DNA of 64,000 bases, the filler included, from Circinaria calcarea (lineage: Eukaryota): the NCBI GenBank assembly GCA_051942165.1. It is 11 parts of 11 records of this genome, joined end to end, with 100 filler letters (N's around TTAATTAATTAA, not from the genome) between each part and the next. Parts side by side here need not be neighbours in the genome. Positions count along the whole stretch, not along the records: positions 52,521 to 58,245 come from JAVECS010001810.1; 10 more parts are not named here. One strand, written 5' to 3'. The position numbers were made by a program, and so were the translations under genes. The notes below the pieces were generated by a model. That model was not told the origin of the DNA, did no database searches, and saw only the letters and a program-made list of their open reading frames with translations. Each line of letters begins with the position of its first letter. Position 1 is the stretch's first letter. This document shows positions 18,937 through 58,891 of this stretch, piece by piece.

Positions 18937-20077
18937 GATGGAAAGACTTTTCCTATACGATTAGCTCACTTTTTCCGTTGGCGTTCAGATTCCGTATACC
19001 CCAATGGCGTGTTTGCTTTATACGGTGTCTAGAAGGTGGGTTGGTTTCATGGCCTTTTGATAGTTGTCGGCACATTAGATTTTAGCTATTAGATATTCTG
19101 TGCTATCACATCGCACAAGCTCTATTGTTAACGTTCCAGATCCCGTCCAAGATGGAACATGGGGTTTTACAAAGGGCGATGGAGATACACGATGCCTTTG
19201 TTCCTTCGAATCGTCTTTGCTGGCACCGATGAGCTTCCCTGATCGGTATGTAGTAAGATGACGAAATCCCAAATACATTCTTCTCTTCTCTTCGACTGGA
19301 GTGCCTATACCGATATACTCGGCCCCCCCCCCCTTTCTTGATCGTCCATCCATACATGTTACGAAAAACGATCCCCCTTCATAATCTCAAATTTCACTTT
19401 TGCCCCGTTCGTTCCATCCGGACTCCCCATCCTATTATAGGTATATATAATATTTGGGGGGTTCAGTTTTCCTCTGTTATGCTCGGAGTATGTTAGGTAG
19501 GCCCGGAATAACAGTGCTCCCAGCCAATCAATACTCGTCTGCCAGGCCACCCCCGCTTGGCTTTACATAGCTCCATTATACATCCATAACGGAGCTATAT
19601 TATGCTAGTGGGCCAATACGAATGCACAGTTTCTGCTAGCTTACCCCTCGTGCTTTACAGTATCGGGCTTAGCCCATCGGTGCCGTGCTCCCGAGCATAA
19701 TAAATTTCTAGCAAAGGAAAACTGAATTCCCTAATTATATATTAATTTTTACAAGGGCTCTACCCGAGAACCCCTACGAACCCTACGGGTGAACTATACA
19801 CCGAGGTCACGAGGTGTTAGCTTAACGAGAAAGGTTTTCTTTGCGGAGTGTTACACCAGAATTCTTTAGCAATAATCCATACGCTTACGCGAACCTATTG
19901 AGCTCATTATCACACAATTTACCGACCCTTATCGTAAGATCATTATACTATTCGTAAAGGATCCTTACACCATTAGTCGCCTTGGCTCCACCACACTAGC
20001 GCCTTCGCTTAACCCTTGCGGAGATCGTAAAAAAAAGAAAACGAAAACGAAAAAGCGCCCACACTTCCCCCCCAGCT

Positions 20078-46691: not shown

Positions 46692-48781
46692 CTCAATCTC
46701 TTTTGGTCCAAGTAATGGGCGATCAAGCCGATACTCCTCCCTAGCACGAAAAGCCCATTGAGTACCCCCATGTTAAGATAATCCTCTGCTTCTTCAGGAC
46801 TGAATGCTCCACAATTTCGCATCAGGTCGACAAAGCAAACAGCTACGCAACCATCGACATTGAGAATCAAGTTGTCCTTCTTAGACGTCGTGACGGTCTC
46901 AACCGCAATGGCATAATCGAGCATCTTACAGGACGGGAAACGCTTCTTGACAAACTCTTTGACTAGCTCCACACGAAGATCGGGGTTGTTACGTGATTTG
47001 ACCTTGTGTCCGATACCGGGAACTATAGTACTTGGTTAGTGTCAAGCTCCAGATAAAAAGACACAAACCTACTCAGCTTGTTTTCCTTCCTCATAGTATC
47101 TACAAAGTCACGAGGGCTAAGCCCTTTGTCGAAAGCCTTTGTAAATTCCTCTGCCGCTCCATCCAGAGCGCCGCCAAACCTTGAACCAATCGTCAAGAGG
47201 CCAGAGACCAATGCACTTATAAGGTCTTTCCCTGCTCTCGTCGTGATGATGGTATTCATCGCACCTGAAACAGCAGGTCCATGGTCGGCAGTCAGCATCA
47301 AAACCATCTCAAGAAACTTGCTCGCGTAATCGGGCAGACGACGACGGAACCAGAGCAGCGACATGACGCCGCCAATACCAATGTCTTCCCTAAACACATC
47401 TGATATTGGCATACCAGCATAGAGAAGTTCTTGGCCACGATCGTCGGAGATGGTGGAAATGAAGGCAGCTGGTTTCCGAATGAGTCCAAGTTCTTGTGCC
47501 CATGAATAATCGATGGGAATTTTAGGGGGAACGGGTTCTGGCTGTGGCTTGATGACGCCGTCCTTGACGAGACCTTGGTAGACCTTGCTCAGGAGCTGAG
47601 GCATCTCCTCAAACGTGTCTGGGACGTAGAAGCCGGCTTCCTTCATCGACTGGTTTTTCATAGCTGCTGTCTCTAATTGCGAATTGGCAAACGAACCGGC
47701 GTGGCCAAATTGTACCTCTGTTTTGAACATGCTCGCACAAGTACCGATAGCCCATGCAACTACAGGTTTTGTTATCGTGCCGTTCTTCACCGCCTCGATA
47801 ACGCGATATTCTTCCACGCCTCCAACTTCCCCAAGTAGAAGCAACAGCTTGCATTCGGGGTCGGCTTGATACCGAAGCATATGATCAATAAAAGTCGTTC
47901 CAGGGTATTTGTCACCGCCGATGGCAACTCCCTCATAAACGCCGTCTGTAGTATTCGAGATGATGTTGTTTAGCTCGTTCGACATACCACCAGACTTGGA
48001 TACATAACCCACAGAGCCTTTACGATACAGCTTAGAGGCAACGATATTGTCCATCATCCCACCAGTATTACCAATCTTGAAAGCTCCAGGTTTGATGCCA
48101 CCTACTGTTGCCGGCCCAATGATTGTGATGCCCTTCTTCTTGGCCAGGTGCAATATCTCGCGAGCGCGTCGTTCGGGAACACCTTCGGCGATTATGGCGA
48201 TGCACTTGATTTGGCCGTATTCCATGAGCTCAAGAGTTGAGCTGTAGACACTTCGGGAGGAAGCAAAGTTTACGACGGTGTCCACATCATTATGCTTGGC
48301 CATGGCTTTGTTGACATCCTGATATACGGGAAGTAACGTCTCGCTTGTGCCCCAGTACCTAAGAAGAAGCATATCAGTATGGTATAAGATGGACAAGTAA
48401 GCTTGGGACCTACATTTTGCTCACGAATTGCCCACCGAATGGATAGATGATGCCGGCAACAGATGGGGTAGATCGCTTGCAGATAAAGTCAAAATCGAGC
48501 ATGCCTTGCACGGCTCGAGGCTGAAGACCACTGCCGAGGTGGATCAGCAAAACACTACGACCAAGTTCTGCTCGAATCGTAACCTACTAGACGAAACAGC
48601 GCGTTTTACTGTGGAAGAGAGTGTGTTCGGCGTGTGCACTCAACGGCCGACTTGGAGCCACAAAACGGCGAATGTTGTCGTTCGCAGAGGCGCCGCCAGT
48701 TGCATTGCTGATTCCATTTGTTTTTGGTGTCGAATCGGTCCCATTCGGGGTACCGTTGGTGAGGGGAACAGCTGAAGGCAT
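46692..48781 (-). CDS. acl1: ATP-citrate lyase subunit 1 (large/catalytic), 3' truncated
   Basis: [19 protein letters not shown] (phospho-His) and ADHGPAVSG motifs. The start is MPSAVP at 48781, with several introns. Confidence 0.96.
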
Positions 48782-49888
48782 TCTGGAACAAGTCGAGAGG
48801 GAACTGTCGAGGGAAGCTGTTGAACACAATCAGCACCGGACGCTCCAAGGTGACCTGACAATCTGGTGTCCCGCCGCAGCAGAGTCGAGCCAGTGAGGGG
48901 TTTGATAGAGCTCCTGTCAGCTTCAGCTTACCTCCGGAATGTGTAGCGTGGGCACCCGGATGATGGAGGTTGCGGACGAGTTATACAGGCAGCCGGCAAT
49001 TGACGGCGGTGTGTTGTTGGCGTGGGAGTGATGGTTGATGGACGATGGGAATTGCCTGATGACGGTGTTCCTTTTCACTTGACGGGCTGCACGAGAGCTC
49101 TTGACTGTTTCCCCCAATTCCGACCGACAGGGATCTTTCTCTCACCCAAACCACGAAGCTGGGGAAGCGCTATCCCAACAGGGTTAGGGTGTGCAAGGGG
49201 GCGAAAGTCAAACATGGGCATTCCCTTTCGTGGCGACATTGTCATCTACGGAGACCGATATGGAGACTACTCTGTACTGTACAGCTGCATGAGATTCCAC
49301 CGCCACCCGGGCTGCATTGGCATCGCATACTCCGGGACTTGATTGCTCGAGAGATGTTCTACCATATCATCCTGATCTTGACATCTCTCCAACAGTATTC
49401 CATCATCAGTCATTGAAAAAGGACTCGCCGTCGGCGTTCGCTTATTCGTTTGGCGGGAAATTAGTGGTGGGCGGCGGGTCGAAAGTTGAGCTCAACAGGC
49501 CAGAGCGGTCACGCTAGCGGGGAATTGGGGAAGAATGTATGTAGGAAAGCTCGATAGAAGAACGGAGCCGAGTATTGTAGTGTATCATCATCATCATCAT
49601 CATCATCCTCCACCCCCCAAAAAGTACAGACGGCATCCTCAGCTCTGGCACGCTCTTGCCATCTTGACCCGGCACCATTGATTTGATTACCCACTCAACA
49701 ACCTTCAACGCCAGACCCCGATAAATCACTTCTACAACTCTCGAGGCCCGTCCAGAGTAAAACTCCCCAAAGACCTTTCTGCTGTAAGCTGCTCCCTCTC
49801 CTCAGCTCTAGGTGACTCGGTGTCAGCGGTAAGGCTCTTGCTTACCCATGTCACAGCTTCCTGAACCTCCAAGGCTCTCGACCTCGCC

Positions 49889-51848
49889 ATGGCCGCCAAA
49901 TCGATCCTCGAAGCCGACGGTAAAGCCATCCTCAACTACCATCTAACCCGAGCGCCAGTTATCAAGCCGACCCCTCTGCCAGCAACCGCAACTCACAATC
50001 CAGCCCCTAGGTTGGCCTCCCTCTACTTCCCCAAAGATGCTGCTGTTTCCTCCGTCCTGGACCAAGCGGAAACCACCTATCCATGGCTCCTCGTCAGCGG
50101 GTCCAAATTTGTTGCGAAGCCCGACCAATTGATCAAGCGACGAGGAAAGAGCGGACTGTTGGCCCTGAACAAAACTTGGCCGGAAGCACGGGCATGGATT
50201 GAGGGCAAGGCCGGCAAGACCCAACAGGTGGAAACGGTTCAGGGCGTGCTGAGGCAGTTCCTGGTGGAACCATTCATCCCGCATCCCTCGAACACCGAAT
50301 ACTACATCAACATCAACTCTGCTCGTGAGGTAAGGGCCCTTTTTTTCTTCTCTTTTTTTCTGGCACGATTGAATATTGCGCGAAGCACATTTTCGGGACA
50401 GTTTTTCGGTCTCCGAAAGTCTTCATCATTCGGAGACCTGGTTCTGCGTTTCCCAATCAACACGACCATAGGTTATGTACCGTCGTCCAGCAATAGGATG
50501 GAGCATCTACGAACACGGACGTTGTCGTATGGTTGTTGGACTATCGCCTCCTGTCCCCCACTTCGGGCGGCCGGGGACTAGCGGCAATGCCCGTCCTTCG
50601 TCCTAGCTGCACGTTCTCGACGGCATCCAGGTTTCTCTGGCTCGCCATGTCACTTTGCCCTGATGACCGCTGTTCCTGCATTAGCTTTAGTGTCTCCATG
50701 GCCTTTGAAGTCCAACCTTACGGGCACATGTGAATGAAGCTAACGTTTCAAAACTTGAATAGGGTGATTGGATCCTTTTCACACACGAGGGTGGTGTAGA
50801 TGTCGGTGACGTGGACACCAAAGCTAAGAAACTCTTGGTTCCCGTCGATCTGTCACAGTACCCATCCAACGAGCAGATTGCCACCACGCTGCTAGAAGAT
50901 GTACCAAAAGGCGTGCATAATGTCCTCATTGACTTCATCTCCCGCCTATACGCTGTCTACGTCGACTGTCAATTCACATATCTCGAGATCAACCCTCTTG
51001 TTGTCATTCCCAACGAAGACGCCAGCTCCGCAGAGGTACACTTCCTTGACCTTGCCGCTAAGCTCGACCAGACTGCCGAGTTTGAATGCGGTGTCAAATG
51101 GGCTGTGGCACGGAGTCCCGCCGCTCTAGGTCTCTCTGCTATCAAGGCGGACGGAAAGGTGAGCATCGATGCGGGTCCGCCAATGGAATTCCCGGCTCCC
51201 TTCGGACGGGAACTGAGTAAGGAGGAAGCATATATTGCGGAATTGGATGCCAAGACTGGCGCTTCGCTCAAGCTCACCATCTTAAATGCCAATGGTCGCG
51301 TGTGGACTTTGGTGGCGGGTGGAGGTGCATCGGTGGTCTACGCTGATGCTATCGCCTCGTCTGGATTTGCGGATGAGCTTGCCAACTACGGAGAGTATTC
51401 CGGTGCCCCCACAGAGACGCAGACATTCCATTATGCTCGGACTGTCCTGGATCTTATGCTACGCGCACCGATCCATCCCGAAGGCAAGGTCCTATTCATC
51501 GGTGGTGGTATCGCAAATTTCACCAATGTATGTCTCAATGATACCAAGTCACGGTTCTCTTGATGCAAACATGTTGCTGACTCTCTGTTCTAGGTTGCCT
51601 CGACGTTCAAAGGGGTTATTCGAGCTCTTCGAGAAGTTGCTAGTACTCTTATCGAGCATAAAGTCCAGATTTGGGTGCGCCGTGCTGGACCTAATTACCA
51701 AGAGGGTCTCCGAAACATCAAGTCGGTCGGCGCAGAACTTAAGCTGGATATGCACGTCTATGGTCCAGAGATGCATGTCAGTGGGATAGTCCCCTTGGCG
51801 TTGGTGCCCGGCAAGAACAAGGGAGAAGTGAAGGAGTTCGGTGCTTAG
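49889..51848 (+). CDS. acl2: ATP-citrate lyase subunit 2
   Basis: [34 protein letters not shown] and [10 protein letters not shown] motifs. Introns at ~50329-50762 and ~51528-51592. Confidence 0.96.
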
Positions 51849-52699
51849 AACGGCATATGAATTCGCTGCCTTGAAGGTTTTAGAGCTTTGGAGTTTTACA
51901 ACTGGGGCTTCTTTACAGGTGGCTGTTTGTTAGTGGTATTGGCGCCTGTTGATTGAGCAGTCAATCAGGCTTGCTACCTTATCCATGTCTTGATAGACTT
52001 CACCGACGCTGGCATCTTGTTGCTTTGCTGAATGGTGGCATACAAATCCAGTTCTCTTGCTTGCAACACGCAAGGGTTTCAAATCATGACCATGGACATG
52101 CTTGTCAATCCAAGGGCCCCTTGCCTAGAAAACTCACACACTGCACCGGGAATTTCAGCAATGACTCAAGAACAACCCAGATTCACCAAGTTTAACTATT
52201 CTCATCTCCCAATAGAGCCCATTGCTCCGACCCATTCCCCCTTCGATCAGCAAATAAACCCCATTCACAACGCTTCTGTAATAATTTCCTCTCCGCAACC
52301 ATCACACCTCTGGGCGCTGGCAACCAAGACTAATACTTTCCTAACTGTAGCGGTCCTTGTATCTTATCCCGTAAATGTTTCGTTTAGAAGATGCTAGAGC
52401 TAGCTTCCTCTCCCCCCCCCNNNNNNNNNNNNNNNNNNNNNNNNNNNNNNNNNNNNNNNNNNNNTTAATTAATTAANNNNNNNNNNNNNNNNNNNNNNNN
52501 NNNNNNNNNNNNNNNNNNNNGAGGTGGGCCGTTGATTATGTACACTGGAGTAGGGAAGATTGGGGAAGATGTAATAGTAGAATATGTGCAAAAAAGGCAC
52601 AAAACCCCCCCCTTTTTGGTCCCTATCTTAATCAATTTCCTCCCTAACCTCCCCAAGCATATGCGAGCCCAGCCCAGCCTGCACACAAGCCCCCTCTCC

Positions 52700-55080
52700 T
52701 CACAACTCCCCCTGCAACCTAATATCCCTCGAACTCGCGCCCACAAACACACCAAAACCCCCCGAGGGCACCACCCACTTCTGGGCTCCTACATCCCAAT
52801 AACTCAGATCTTTCCGGCGCAAATTGAACGTCACCGTCGTCTTCGCGGCCCCACCCAGATAAACCTTCTGGAAGCCTCGGAGTTGTTTGGGCGGACTGGC
52901 GGGTGCGGATGAGGGCAGACCGATGTACAATTGGGCGACCTCGGCGCCGGCGACGCTGCCGGTGTTTTCGATGGTGGCGGTGACTGTGGCGACAGTGTCG
53001 TAGAGACCTGAGATGCCACCGGGAGCATTATTGGTGGAGCCAGCGGATCGGTCAAAGTAGTTTGTTGCGAGGCCGGAGTAGGCAAAGTTGGTGTAGGCTG
53101 TTGAAGGGGGAGAATTAGAAGATGTATGACTAGTTGAAAGAATCGAGGAGGGAGGACTTACAAAGACCGAAACCGAACTCGTAGCGGGGTTGGATGTTGT
53201 ATTTATCAAAGTGTCTGTAGTCGATATAGAGACCTTCTGGGAAATTGTCGTCTCCCCCGACGGGGCCCATGCCGTAATCGCCGACTGACTTGGCAATGGT
53301 ATATGGGAGTTTACCACTCGGTGATACCGAACCGTAGAGTACGTCTACCAACCCGTTTCCGGATTCCTGGCCTGGGATGCCAGCCCAGATCACGCCAATA
53401 ACATTAGGTAGGTTCACAATGGGTTCTAGGATTAGCGGGCCGACACTATGAATCACCACAATCGTTTTCTGGTTCACATTTGCAACCGCCTGCACCAGCT
53501 GATTTCCGTTATGCCACGGGTCAAGAGTGGCTCTGTCCCCACCATTCCCTTCGACAGTAATATATCCTTCACCGGCATCGGAATTGATAAAGACAATGGC
53601 CGTTTCAGCGGTTTTTGCAGCAGATGCGCCAGAGCTGGCGTCGTCGGTTGTCGACGTTGTCAGTGTTGTTCCGTCCGCGGCGGCGCGGGTTTTGATGGCG
53701 TCTATTGGGGCAATCAAGTACTAGGGCAGAATATAAGCAGATGAAGTGAAGACCTACTTGACAGATGGCTTACTGGGAAATCTGCTGTTCCAGAACCCCA
53801 GCCCTGTGAGATTATAAGCACACGATCTGAAGAGTTGGAGTGGCTGAGCCCCTGAATTCTATGTCCGCGGCATATCTTACCATGGCCAAAGTCCCAACAT
53901 TGCAACCCCTATCCCAGCACGCATTCGGCCCATCCGGATTGACGATTGCATCGGAGCCAATGATTGCCAGACTTGCAGGCCTTTTCAACGGCAGAGCAGA
54001 ATTGGAGTTTTTGAGGAGTACTATGCCATCCCGTGCAATAGCTCTTGCAACAGTAGCGTGGTTCCCCTGTACATTAGGGCCACCTTTACCGCCATTCCAG
54101 GATACGAACAAAGTCGGTGGATATCCGCTGTCTTGTTTGGTAAAGTACCAAGCAGCAAGGATCCGTGTAACCATGTTATCAATGCGGGATTGGGGTACTT
54201 GACCGGCATTCACGGCATTCACGAGATTCTGGCCCCACCAGAATTGATTGTTCCCAAAATTATCCCCAGGCATCGACATATCCAATCCCGCATTTGCAGC
54301 TGGGGCAGTAGTCTGCTGTGCAGTCCAATCGCTAACGACATAGCCCTGGAAATCCAACTCGTCCTTCAGTAGGTTGTTCAAGATAGTTGGATTTTCACAG
54401 GCATATGTGCCATTGAGCCTGTTATATGAGCACATGATTGATGCAACATCCGCCCTGACAGAATCCGCAAATGGCCAAAGGTACAGCTCGTGTAGTGTTC
54501 GATCGTCAATGTTGCTGCTCATGGTAGCACGGTTGAGCTCCTGTTCGTTCCCAATGTAGTGCTTTGCACATGCCTGAACGCCAGCACCTTGCATGCCTTG
54601 AATGGTCTGAGCCATTGCAACACCCGTCAAGTATGGATCAGGAGAGAATCCTTCCCAATTGCGGCCTCCTTGAGGAATCTTTCCAAGCGGTCCAGCGACC
54701 GGTCCCAGCTGGACATTGATACCTAATCCTTTGGCCTCTGCACCAAGAGCTGCCCCTCTTTGATTTATCAAGCCGATATCCCAGGTCGATGCGGCGTGCA
54801 CTCCTGCCGGAAATGCGGTAATTCCTTGGGCATAACGCACCCCGAGAGGTCCGTCCTGAAGACAAAGGGATGGATACCCAATTGATGGTATGGCCTTGGT
54901 ATTCCCTACACAAGGACCCTTGGCCCAACCACCCCCAGTCACCATGTCGACCTTATCCTGAAGAGAGAGCTTGGCCAGCGCTGCGGTAGCTTTGGAGTAC
55001 GCTGCTTCCCAGTTGCCATCTCCAGGAGCGGCACAGATTGGCGCAGCCAAAGCCACAAAGGCAAGTAAAAGGAAGAGCAT
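52700..55080 (-). CDS. Secreted GH3 beta-glucosidase (BglL/Cel3A-like), multi-exon
   Basis: Signal peptide, LCLQDGPLG, GGRNWEGF, AKHYIGNEQE, catalytic VVSDW and a C-terminal FnIII-like region (PPKQLRGFQK). Confidence 0.95.
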
Positions 55081-56099
55081 TTCTGCTGTAGGGAACTGGG
55101 ATGAAACCAAAAGAAGACGCAGTTCCAAAAGGCTGGAGAAGGGTTCTCACTGCTTCCTTTAAGCAGAAACTCTGGTAATTTGCCATCTACGCAAGGAACA
55201 GCGATCCAAGCTGTTACTGCTTCTGAATGGCCTTCGTTGTGGTACACGTCAAGGGCTCTGAGGCCCCGGTGACTCTTGTGCATTTTATCCATTTCATCCA
55301 CATTACCCATTTTATCCGGAGCGGGTATGACAAGTCGATATCGAATCGAACCTACCGGCTATTCAAGATGCATGCCTAAATTTGCGGTAACACCGTTAGC
55401 TTTACAGTAAGCTGCTGACAGCCTTCGAAGTTAGTAGTCAGTCTCTGGATGTGTCCGGTTCCGCCACTGATAGGTTCGCTTACCGCCCATCGCGCCGAAT
55501 ATCGTCAACCCCGCAAAGGCGGATTACTTGCTCCGCTGGGTAACCATTGGTACTAGGAAGCTAATGATACTCTTTTCGACGTCTATATGCAGTCAAGGTC
55601 ATACGACAGGCCAGGACAAAAGATTCGGGAGTGATTTATGGTACAATATAGCATGGGAGAAACGTGGGGTTTTACTGAGGGCACTGGGTGACCAGCCGAG
55701 ATCCGGTCTGGATAAAAATCATGTTCGAACGGAAATATCGATACTAGGGAAATCCTAGGGACAGCAAACAGCCATTGAGACAGGCGACCCAAACGCATAC
55801 TTCTTCCACTGTTCTGAACAGGTACTCTCCTTTCAAGCTGTCACGAAAAGGCCAGTTTCGCAATGAAGAAGTCCGAGCGGTGCCATCAAACAGGTCAAGT
55901 ACCTATAACACAAAGACTATAGCTCATCTTCGAATGTAGAGAAAGAGGCTTATAGAGAGCCACGAGGGCGAAGTGTGAGATGCCAGAAATGGGCGGCACG
56001 GTGCTTAAACACATAGATAGCCCGGTAGGGCTGTATCGGGCCGACTATTCAGCCGTCCAGGGGTGACCCGGGGCCAAGCCGACAAACTGGTACGAATGG

Positions 56100-58155
56100 A
56101 GGCGACGGCATGAAAACACGAGTGATAAAGCGGGGCTTTGGGGGGATTATATTGAGTACCCTGTTTAAGCTCCTTGCAAAAGCCCCCGGTAAAAGAAGCT
56201 GTTTTGGGTGCAGGGGCTGAAATTCGCTTAAATAGGGGTGACGAAAACTTTAATTCAAGCCGACAGCATGAAAAAAGGAGCGATAAAGCAGGGCTCTGGA
56301 ATTATTATTGAGAATACCTTAGTTAAGCTCCATGCAAAAGCCCCAGCCAGAAGAAGCTGTTTTGAAGGCAGCGGCTGAGATTTTGCTTAAATAGGGGTAA
56401 ACAAAAACTTTAAATTAAGCCGCCAGCATGAAAAACGAAGGATAAAGCAGGGCTCCGGGAACATGATAATTATTAACCTACTTAAGCTGTATGCAAAAGC
56501 CCCCGGCAGCAGAAGCCATTCTGGAGCCAGCGGCTTAAAAAAACAATGTAGCCCTAGCTAGTTATATATTACGCGATCAGCCGACGGTGTGAATACGCGT
56601 TGTTAAGCAAGGGGCTCTGGGTCCATCATAGCTACTTATGCCAGCAGTGTATATGCCAGAGCCCTCGGCAGGAGAAGCCTTTTTGGAGGCAGCGGCTCAA
56701 ATTTAGTTAGATAGGGGTAAATAAAATTTTAAATTCAGCCGGCAGCATGAAAACACGAGCCATAAAGTAGGGCTCTGGGGGTAATCATAGTAAATACTAT
56801 GTTTAAGCTGCGTGCAAGAGCCCCCGTCAGGAGAAGCTGTTTTGGAGGCAGTGGCTCAAAAAAACTCGATTAGCCCTAAATAACTTTATATTACGCGATC
56901 AGCCGACGTTGCGAGTACAGGGAATTCAGCAGGGGGCTTTCAGGACATAATAAATGTTTATATTCTTAGTCTATATACTAAAGCCCCCGGTAGGAGAAGC
57001 TGTTCTGGAGCCAGCGGCTTGAAATATTCGATTAGCCCTAACCAGCATTAAGCGAGAAGCCGACGGTGCGAATACGCGTTATTAAACACGGTGCTTTTGG
57101 AACATCATAGCTCCTTATAACCTCGGTGTATATGCTAGAGCCCCAGGTAGATGAAGCTATATCGAAGCCAGCGGCTTGGAAAATCCGATTAGCCCTAATT
57201 AAGTATTAAGCGAGGAGCCGACGCTGCGAGTATAAGGAACTAAGCAAGGGGCTTTGGGATTATCATAGCAATCAGCATTCTCAACTTGTGTGCCAAAGCC
57301 CTAGGTAAAAGGGGTTATATTGAAGCAAGCGGCTTGAAAAATTCGATTAGCCCTAGCCAAGCAATACGCGATCAGCCGACGTCGCGAATATAAAGAATTA
57401 GACAAGGGGCTTTTGGGACGCAATAGCTACTTATACCATCAACCTGTATATCAAAGCCCCAGGTATAAAAAGCTGTTTTGGAACCAGCGGCTCGAAAAAC
57501 TCGATTAGCCCTAATTTGAATCCTATATTCAGCCGACACTGCGAGTATGGGGAATTAAACAGAGGGCTTTTGAAACGTAATAACTGCTTATATTCCTAGT
57601 CTGTATGCCAAAGCCCCCGGCAGGAGGAGCTATATCGGAGCCGTCGGCTTGAAAACCTCGAGTAGCCCTAACTAGAATTATGTGATCAGCCGACTCTCCG
57701 AGTATGAGGCATTAGGCCGGGGGCTTTGGGGATATAATAGCTACTTATGTCACCAGTCTGCTCGCAAAAGCCCCTGGTAGGAGAAGCTATATCGGAGCCG
57801 TCGGCTTGAAAAACTCGATTAGCCCTAACCTGGCATTAAGCGAGAAGCTGTCCCGGTTTGGCTTAGCGACTCGCTTCCCAGGGCCGGATCACGTGACCCA
57901 CAATGTATTTTAGTTTCGCAGTCGTGTGGAGATTCCATCTCCAAACTTAAAATTCTAGGTTAAACACTGCAACCAGAATTCAGTCCCTGACAGAAGCCGA
58001 CGTTGGAGGTACGTGGGCTCAAACGGGAAGGCTTTGGAGAGAAGAAGATGATACAGAGCTCAAGCAATTACTATATTCTGCTGAAGCCGAAACCCATAGA
58101 AAAGCCATCCTGGAGCCAACGGCCTGGAAATTATGCGCTTAGCCCTAACCAAGCC
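56100..58155. repeat. Divergent tandem array of ~158-bp internally palindromic units (11 contiguous + 1 detached)
   Basis: Unit starts (AGCCG-like) are at 56100, 56258, 56418, 56579, 56737, 56901, 57058, 57216, 57374, 57531 and 57688, ending at ~57848. A twelfth, degenerate unit starts at ~57995. No long ORF is present. Confidence 0.92.
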
Positions 58156-58891
58156 GGTACGCGAAACAAAAGCACATTTCTTATCATACCCCCAACATCT
58201 ACAAAATATCCTACCCCTATTTGGGAGTAGGGGGCGATTTTGGGGNNNNNNNNNNNNNNNNNNNNNNNNNNNNNNNNNNNNNNNNNNNNTTAATTAATTA
58301 ANNNNNNNNNNNNNNNNNNNNNNNNNNNNNNNNNNNNNNNNNNNNCCACCTACCCCTACCACCTACCCCTACCACTTAACCTGATGAATTTTAGTATTCC
58401 AACAACGGCCAAGGATAGCCCCCTATCTCACTTTACAATTTTTTTCTGTCTTATCGAATAAAATTTATACATTTTTGATTTTTGGCTGGCTTGCTTGCTA
58501 AGATTTAGTGCGGAAAATATACATTCTCGGTCCTAACGGCCCCTCGGGGATTCCCTGTCGTCAAAAAGATACCGCAGAATCAAATGGTCTTTCTGTTTAG
58601 AGGGAGTTGGAAACTATGGAATTGGAGACTGGGAGTGGGGGTTGGGATTTAGGAGTACTGGTTTGCGGGGACTCGGATCTTTTTGGGAAGTGATGTCATT
58701 GGAATACCCCAAGGTCAGTGGCTCGGCTTCAGTATCAGGAAACGGCTTACTGTTGCAAAGGGGAGGCTGGCGCAAACGTGTCATTGCCGTGGTGTTGCTG
58801 TCGTCGAAAGGCCGTTCGTGGTAAATGCTAATACCTTGAATTGAGACGCCATCGCCTTTGTCTCTCTTTTAACAGTAAGATCGTACAATCG

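Follow-up and report, generated by a model that had tools for sequence, protein, structure and literature searches.

The locus described here raises the question of why a tandem array whose units have diverged widely in sequence should have kept its period, its inverted motifs and the spacing between them. The array lies in a window of 64,000 nucleotides (the whole stretch of Circinaria calcarea DNA that was analysed), which is a chain of unrelated contigs of ~5.7 kb with 100-base spacers between them, and the DNA to the right of position 58245 belongs to another, unrelated contig beyond such a 100-N spacer. A protein encoded in the window is 100% identical to an entry labelled Circinaria calcarea, a lichen fungus assembled from a metagenome. 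The sole gene on the array's own contig encodes a GH3 beta-glucosidase, whose best relatives are 71-76% identical (proteins of at least 742 aa), and the array stands 1020 bp from its start codon, on the upstream side. An extension of the contig past its end was looked for and none was found, and its end (58215-58245) differs in the last bases from a second copy of the locus on contig C561. Beyond the array, C561 continues into the 3' end of an F-box-like ORF, a Pfam match under the cut-off (E=0.028) with F-box clusters as the atlas leads; the array, ~2 kb long and 47% GC, is flanked by this ORF and the GH3 gene. The top atlas neighbours of this ORF came from large DNA viruses. A small hairpin, AGCCC-N4-GGGCT, was also observed to the left of the array at 56015-56029.

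52521-58245: the array's contig (G000:C1810)
52700..55080, minus strand: GH3 beta-glucosidase gene (GH3 N, GH3 C and Fn3-like domains; Cel3A/BglL-like), start codon at 55080
58246..58345, unstranded: artificial 100-base spacer joining unrelated contigs
3456-4403 of L017 (G000:C561), minus strand: F-box-like ORF of 315 aa with many Cys pairs and a weak F-box

Units were found to start at 56100, 56258, 56418, 56579, 56737, 56901, 57058, 57216, 57374, 57531 and 57688, from which the periods given in the sequence-only reading (158, 160, 161, 158, 164, 157, 158, 158, 157 and 157 bp) were reproduced exactly. Its count of about 12 units was correct in so far as 11 intact units (56100-57848) and one decayed unit are present, but the 144-bp solo LTR that interrupts them had been missed. 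Each unit is composed of a 42-bp arm, a 35-bp centre, an inverted 42-bp arm and a linker of 38-44 bp; the 119-bp core was exact in 15 of 17 units, with one of 118 and one of 120 bp. The word AGCC occurs at core positions 1 and 82, GGCT at 35 and 116, and every linker holds a TAGGG/CCCTA word, with an inverted linker class (TAGGGG) in units 1, 2 and 4 after which the 'GCATGAAAA' arm class always comes.

56077..56099, plus strand: AGCCGAC...GGTACGAAT, the incomplete beginning of a unit at the left edge, recognised by eye and missed by the profile
56100..57848, unstranded: main array, 11 intact units of 157-164 bp
56100..56900, unstranded: left block, units 1-5, a mosaic by comparison with the C561 copy
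57058..57848, unstranded: units 7-11, present in the window copy only, with no close counterpart in C561

The large divergence between units that had been noted was borne out, with pairwise identities of 48-78% (mean 63%) among the 11 window units, and units 7-11, 65-78% identical to one another, still keep both the motifs and the 119-bp core length. The nested inverted motifs are likewise real, as the geometry pattern gave 13 matches in the window versus 0.00 expected (100 shuffles), and the described dyad symmetry was recovered around the centre of the 119-bp core, with a profile score of 0.397 against a shuffled maximum of 0.358 (300 shuffles). This symmetry persists once the terminal 4-mers are taken out, and over the inner 30 arm columns it was reached in 0 of 5000 permutations. 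The two 42-bp arms are ~52% alike in inverted orientation, making the core an imperfect palindrome. A direct dimer of an 80-bp monomer is marginal, with a sub-period of 76-81 bp at P=0.06, and the inverted relation is much stronger. The part of the unit that had been called variable fill does differ between units, but it is homologous and hence not independent sequence: the 35-bp centres are identical at a mean of 19.2 of 35 positions (minimum 11) versus 8.2 when inverted, and are therefore not captured spacers.

How the array has changed can be read from the copy on C561, in which 6 units before the LTR and 1 orphan unit beyond it are present, 7 in total versus 12 in the window. The flanks of the two copies are 94-99% identical, with values of 98.8% in the GH3 coding part, 94-95% in the upstream spacer, 93% in the LTR and 97% in the orphan. 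The first 140 bases of C561 match the window exactly and a further contig, C3076, has the gene's other end at 96%, so that the three contigs have the pattern of an assembly-graph branch, putatively between two haplotypes, the alternative being a paralogue. A full-length second copy was found for none of 8 other window contigs (C1802-C1809), in searches of which one scored 40 of 338 candidates.

Individual units are mosaics when the two copies are compared (a, C561; w, window): a1 corresponds to w1 and then carries a w4-like linker, a3 ends in the w2 linker, a4 corresponds to w3 and a6 to w6, and w7-w11 are without counterpart. These mosaics indicate array turnover by in-register unequal exchange, and because the mosaic segments are 84-94% identical between copies and the longest exact repeat within the array is 28 bp, they are not the product of assembly artefact or chimerism. 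In a PHI-type test, a statistic sensitive to rate heterogeneity and open to inflation by it, the observed value was reached in 0 of 1000 permutations for each of three window sizes. Exchange points often fell near core positions 103-112, inside a conserved arm. The linkers comprise a class A of five and a class B of the other twelve, and class A aligned with inverted class B at a score of 13.7 (shuffled 4.4) and with direct class B at 7.2 (shuffled 5.4). This is explained by one ancestral inversion between inverted arms, followed by spread together with the adjoining arm; since the class A linkers are closely related, the inversion is one inherited event. No inversion of centres was found on comparing them among units. 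Turnover at this single locus, comprising a copy-number difference, in-register exchange and one inversion, is demonstrated by comparison of the two copies. As in a VNTR, the units are tandem, head-to-tail and at one locus, with 12 versus 7 copies between the putative haplotypes. Minisatellite units are usually ~10-100 bp, and the units here are longer, at 157-164 bp.

Further arrays in the assembly, for which a search had been recommended, were not recovered: three geometry patterns gave 28, 40 and 32 matches, all on C1810 and C561. As the search used patterns on a fragmented assembly of 31.5 Mb, absence is a lower bound and single, very diverged units could be missed. Metagenome collections yielded 6 matches, all in DNA of 66-71% GC without a profile hit and judged to be chance, and viral collections yielded 0 matches to the array. 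Among the papers listed in a mostly non-subscription literature, none described a comparable array from lichen fungi or other ascomycetes.

The array is interrupted near its right end by a 144-bp piece which, from its TG...CA termini, 5-bp duplication and dispersed family, is identified as a solo LTR.

57849..57992, plus strand: solo LTR, TG...CA, 144 bp, of a dispersed retrotransposon family
57844..57848 (left, plus strand) and 57993-57997 (right): target-site duplication GAAGC, 5 bp
57995..~58150, unstranded: orphan unit beyond the LTR, 41-57% identical to the other units

The insertion is old, fell on a unit boundary and has its counterpart, 93% identical, at the corresponding position of C561. 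The element is 23% diverged from the majority sequence of the other family copies, which occupy 13 other genomic places; of the 12 whose two ends were called, 6 show a 5-bp duplication. Beyond the LTR, the orphan unit has an arm-profile score under threshold and a lengthened centre; against its C561 counterpart it is 97% identical, with 3 indel events. Its decay ~150 bp further out could reflect either lost homogenisation or lost selection. Across the LTR family (57849-57992 and L004-L016) there is a conserved CACGTGAC palindrome together with GC-rich hairpins, two copies on contig C493 run on into common downstream sequence, and some copies have the 21-bp 5' end duplicated. C-to-T changes also dominate the differences in some copies (25 of 31; 25 of 35), the outcome expected of RIP; a RIP-type dinucleotide skew was looked for in the array and none was found, unlike in some of these LTR copies.

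The retention of motifs within such a mobile array was assessed column by column. Across 17 units, 30 of 157 columns are invariant, versus 7.9 +/- 2.6 (maximum 17) in 500 uniform-rate neutral runs on the ML tree and means of 7.6-11.5 (maximum 17, n=200) in forward simulations with gene conversion, both sets assuming uniform mutation rates. The invariant columns are clustered (P=0.003). Changes numbered 0.25 per column over 16 motif columns versus 2.76 elsewhere, a difference of ~elevenfold for columns picked after seeing the alignment, and 0.06 versus 1.12 over the same post hoc columns when units 6-11 were taken alone. Changes per column are mirror-symmetric about the dyad (rho 0.52, P=2.5e-5, the best of the axes tried), with a second mirror axis nearly equal at rho 0.49. 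AGCC/GGCT words in the flanks differ at 10 of 129 sites inside the words versus 111 of 2792 outside, a count biased upward by their definition, and these words are thus not intrinsically slow-mutating. Length is conserved as well: the core carries 2 indel events per at least 288 substitutions versus 10-27 expected at flank ratios (P <=0.002), and the pairwise ratio of indels to substitutions is 0.006 in the core, 0.11 in the linker and 0.12 among LTR copies.

It had been proposed that selection acts on the geometry of the units, unlike in a young satellite. The excess of invariant columns, the mirror-symmetric conservation and the depletion of core indels uphold this proposal, but part of the steady period does not belong to it, since in-register recombination simply accounts for that part. 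Short symmetric words and their spacing are retained non-randomly, and the constraint looks real; because the motifs are invariant rather than covarying, it would act at the level of DNA and not of RNA.

Several identities that had been suggested for the array did not withstand comparison. Hairpin RNA genes with variable loops could be drawn, as the nested inverted motifs allow two short helices, but this interpretation is now scarcely credible: the inverted arms are present and yet pair at only ~20 of 38 positions per unit, so that single units fold no better than shuffles (mean folding z of -0.23 on the plus and -0.36 on the minus strand over 19 units, none below -2). The check for arm covariation that had been recommended gave values at or above the observed in 461 of 500 shuffles, with the proposed helices covarying less than controls, and there were no Rfam matches in the array up to E=1 and no tRNA by ARAGORN. 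A 5S origin was rejected, with a local score of 25.1 against 23.0 +/- 3.8 shuffled and no resemblance to the 5S genes of this genome; among 30 listed genome-wide (G000), at least 27 dispersed 5S rRNA genes lie over the Rfam cut-off. The description of the array as non-coding holds, with no codon signal (conservation by codon position 0.75/0.79/0.74) and with every one of the six frames interrupted by stops; minus frame 1 has the fewest, and there it is the third positions that are best conserved. A hidden repeat-protein gene with one intron per repeat was also rejected, there being no open frame, codon signal or invariant splice sites, with neither AG nor GT invariant among units. A centromeric or subtelomeric satellite is not supported, the array being a single locus of 2 kb between two genes at 47% GC.

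The neighbouring gene is transcribed in a relative, and the array lies upstream of it. RNA contigs from 2 biocrust runs of one study, the only sequencing runs in which words of the array's contig were found (6%), and which represent a relative ~93% identical, cover the GH3 gene with three introns and a 5' reach to 55376, together with a small part of the LTR. The distance from the 5' end seen in this RNA to the array is 0.7-2.8 kb. The array itself is uncovered by these contigs, and as the relative may lack it or have diverged, the gap is weak evidence only against its transcription.

From this evidence, the array is a well-characterised but local repeat, constrained and real, and the explanation tentatively preferred, at somewhat less than an even chance, is a variable-number repeat beside the promoter, in which a putative symmetric DNA-binding protein would preserve the AGCC/GGCT sites and through which the GH3 gene would be tuned. 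Its origin would lie in a palindrome of two inverted 42-bp arms, as the anatomy suggests, amplified head to tail into what is now an old single-locus VNTR at the promoter end of a beta-glucosidase gene of secreted type. As comparison of the sequences shows, copy number has changed and pieces have been shuffled by in-register unequal exchange or conversion between units 60-80% identical, often inside the best-conserved arm, and one linker was inverted once between its flanking inverted arms. Retention of four AGCC/GGCT sites per unit and of their spacing would follow from binding by a two-fold symmetric protein complex reading the words on double-stranded DNA. The constraint is established statistically, protein binding is what it may signify, and from its position the array would most likely serve the GH3 gene as a regulatory or chromatin platform of variable dose. 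Among the possibilities raised from the sequence, phased symmetric protein sites survive as the best reading. Counted against it are the decay of the orphan, the 0.7-2.8 kb from the RNA 5' end, the second axis at rho 0.49 and the fact that one copy manages with 7 units.

A functionless old minisatellite, in which in-register exchange keeps the period while uneven mutation and template-switch correction mimic motif conservation, is unlikely, though with an appreciable chance of being right. It is compatible with the recombination and copy-number change demonstrated here and with the decay of the unit isolated by the LTR, and in units 10-11 an arm end has come to complement the unit start exactly, which is what template switching would produce; a single locus with no transcript seen in the relative's RNA contigs also suits it. 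However, neutral simulations with or without conversion never exceeded 17 invariant columns versus 30 observed, highly variable columns adjoin invariant words of 4-5 bp at a grain too fine for conversion tracts, the arm covariation that template switching should leave is absent, and indel depletion is confined to the core. More doubtful is a selfish or relic recombination substrate, made either of lost mobile-element ends (tandem MITE-like palindromes) or of recombinase or transposase sites of which intact ones are preferentially copied. The palindromic 119-bp core with inverted termini, the linker inversion bounded by inverted arms, the frequent exchange points near core positions 103-112 and the decay of the orphan after separation could all be so explained, but no dispersed copy or second array was found in 31.5 Mb (a lower bound in this fragmented assembly), the inversion is one inherited event with none in the centres, and no target-site duplication was found around units. 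Subterminal repeats of a large transposon, one of the original candidates, are not supported on similar grounds: neither a partner end nor dispersed copies were found in this assembly, and the Pfam scan of 28 window ORFs and 7 C561 ORFs (to 8.6 kb) gave no transposase or recombinase.

Fungal nucleosome repeat length is roughly 155-170 bp, and each symmetric 158-bp unit might accordingly position one nucleosome. The period and two-fold symmetry do fit a nucleosome plus short linker, and AA/TT/TA steps show an apparent peak at a period of 10.5, but a comparable peak lies at 13.25-13.5, positioning does not require invariant words of 4-5 bp, and the fixed part is the 119 bp while the period ranges over 157-164; nucleosome phasing is accordingly held to be quite improbable. 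Slightly less probable again is a recombination cassette read by a protein, with a dedicated symmetric protein at the fixed-spaced AGCC/GGCT sites driving in-register exchange and inversion. Were it true, a lichen fungus would keep reshuffling its regulatory units, in both number and type, upstream of an enzyme of carbon acquisition.

If the preferred explanation of protein binding to promoter-side repeats is followed, candidate proteins can be compared with the retained words. The linker word AGCCCTAA has 6 matches and resembles a Tbf1/telobox site. According to PMC6323846, XlnR binds GGCT(A/G)A, reads the two bases after GGCT and controls cellulolytic genes in Aspergillus. The window array contains 14 GGCT(A/G)A words and the 1-kb spacer to GH3 contains 1; the invariant part, however, is GGCT alone, and because the next two bases vary at invariant sites (TT, TC, TG, GA, TA, CA), no known motif fits all of them and XlnR is a lead only. 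The yeast Crz1 word, given as GAGGCT in PMC11868491, has 0 occurrences in the array.

Promoter tandem repeats can vary the number of transcription-factor sites, an example in PMC3899988 being a 61-bp RFC repeat that binds Sp1/AP2. Like those described there, the array is upstream, non-coding and copy-number polymorphic with repeated short motifs; unlike them, it has units of 158 bp that are 37% diverged and palindromic with fixed inter-site spacing. In PMC6896093, the RPS subunits of the Candida albicans MRS are 80-170-bp segments sharing the 29-bp COM29, and the array is similarly fungal and non-coding, with diverged segments, a conserved, partly palindromic motif and size change by intrachromosomal recombination. 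The MRS spans ~50 kb on seven chromosomes, whereas the array is 2 kb at a single locus with a different motif. The array resembles MRS subunits in build without being an MRS member. Minisatellites with variant-repeat mosaics also combine a single locus, variable number, interleaved variant units and exchange between alleles, but the unit here is longer and has diverged much further, and it combines dyad symmetry with selective retention of motifs. Bacterial REP/BIME mosaics alternate inverted short motifs with linkers of conserved length; unlike these, the array is eukaryotic and at one locus, with no associated transposase found and no stable hairpin.

Almost no cis-elements are known in lichen fungi. 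If the constraint does reflect protein binding, the locus would be a natural copy-number-variable regulatory platform, and its 17 diverged units a built-in mutational scan of site and spacing, with two putative haplotypes and the LTR-isolated unit as internal controls. Exchange is in any case seen between repeats just 60-80% identical.

Other contigs of the window gave observations of their own. Some ends of C1805-C1807 have 141-bp exact overlaps with two alternative contigs, which suggests a branching graph from mixed genotypes. C1807 (35032-40762) is AT-rich, at 21-30% GC, and has weak Pfam matches to a phage-type RNA polymerase N-terminus and an organellar DNA polymerase B; on these weak matches it may be a linear mitochondrial plasmid or a degenerate nuclear copy, with related pieces on C992, C956, C239 and C1378. 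At 19449-19972 there are two adjacent dispersed repeats with at least 40 matches elsewhere at 76-96% identity, probably another LTR family, and several members of the solo-LTR family have similar sequence beside them. Finally, the ATP-citrate lyase subunit genes at 47023-51563 are divergently arranged, the usual layout in filamentous ascomycetes.
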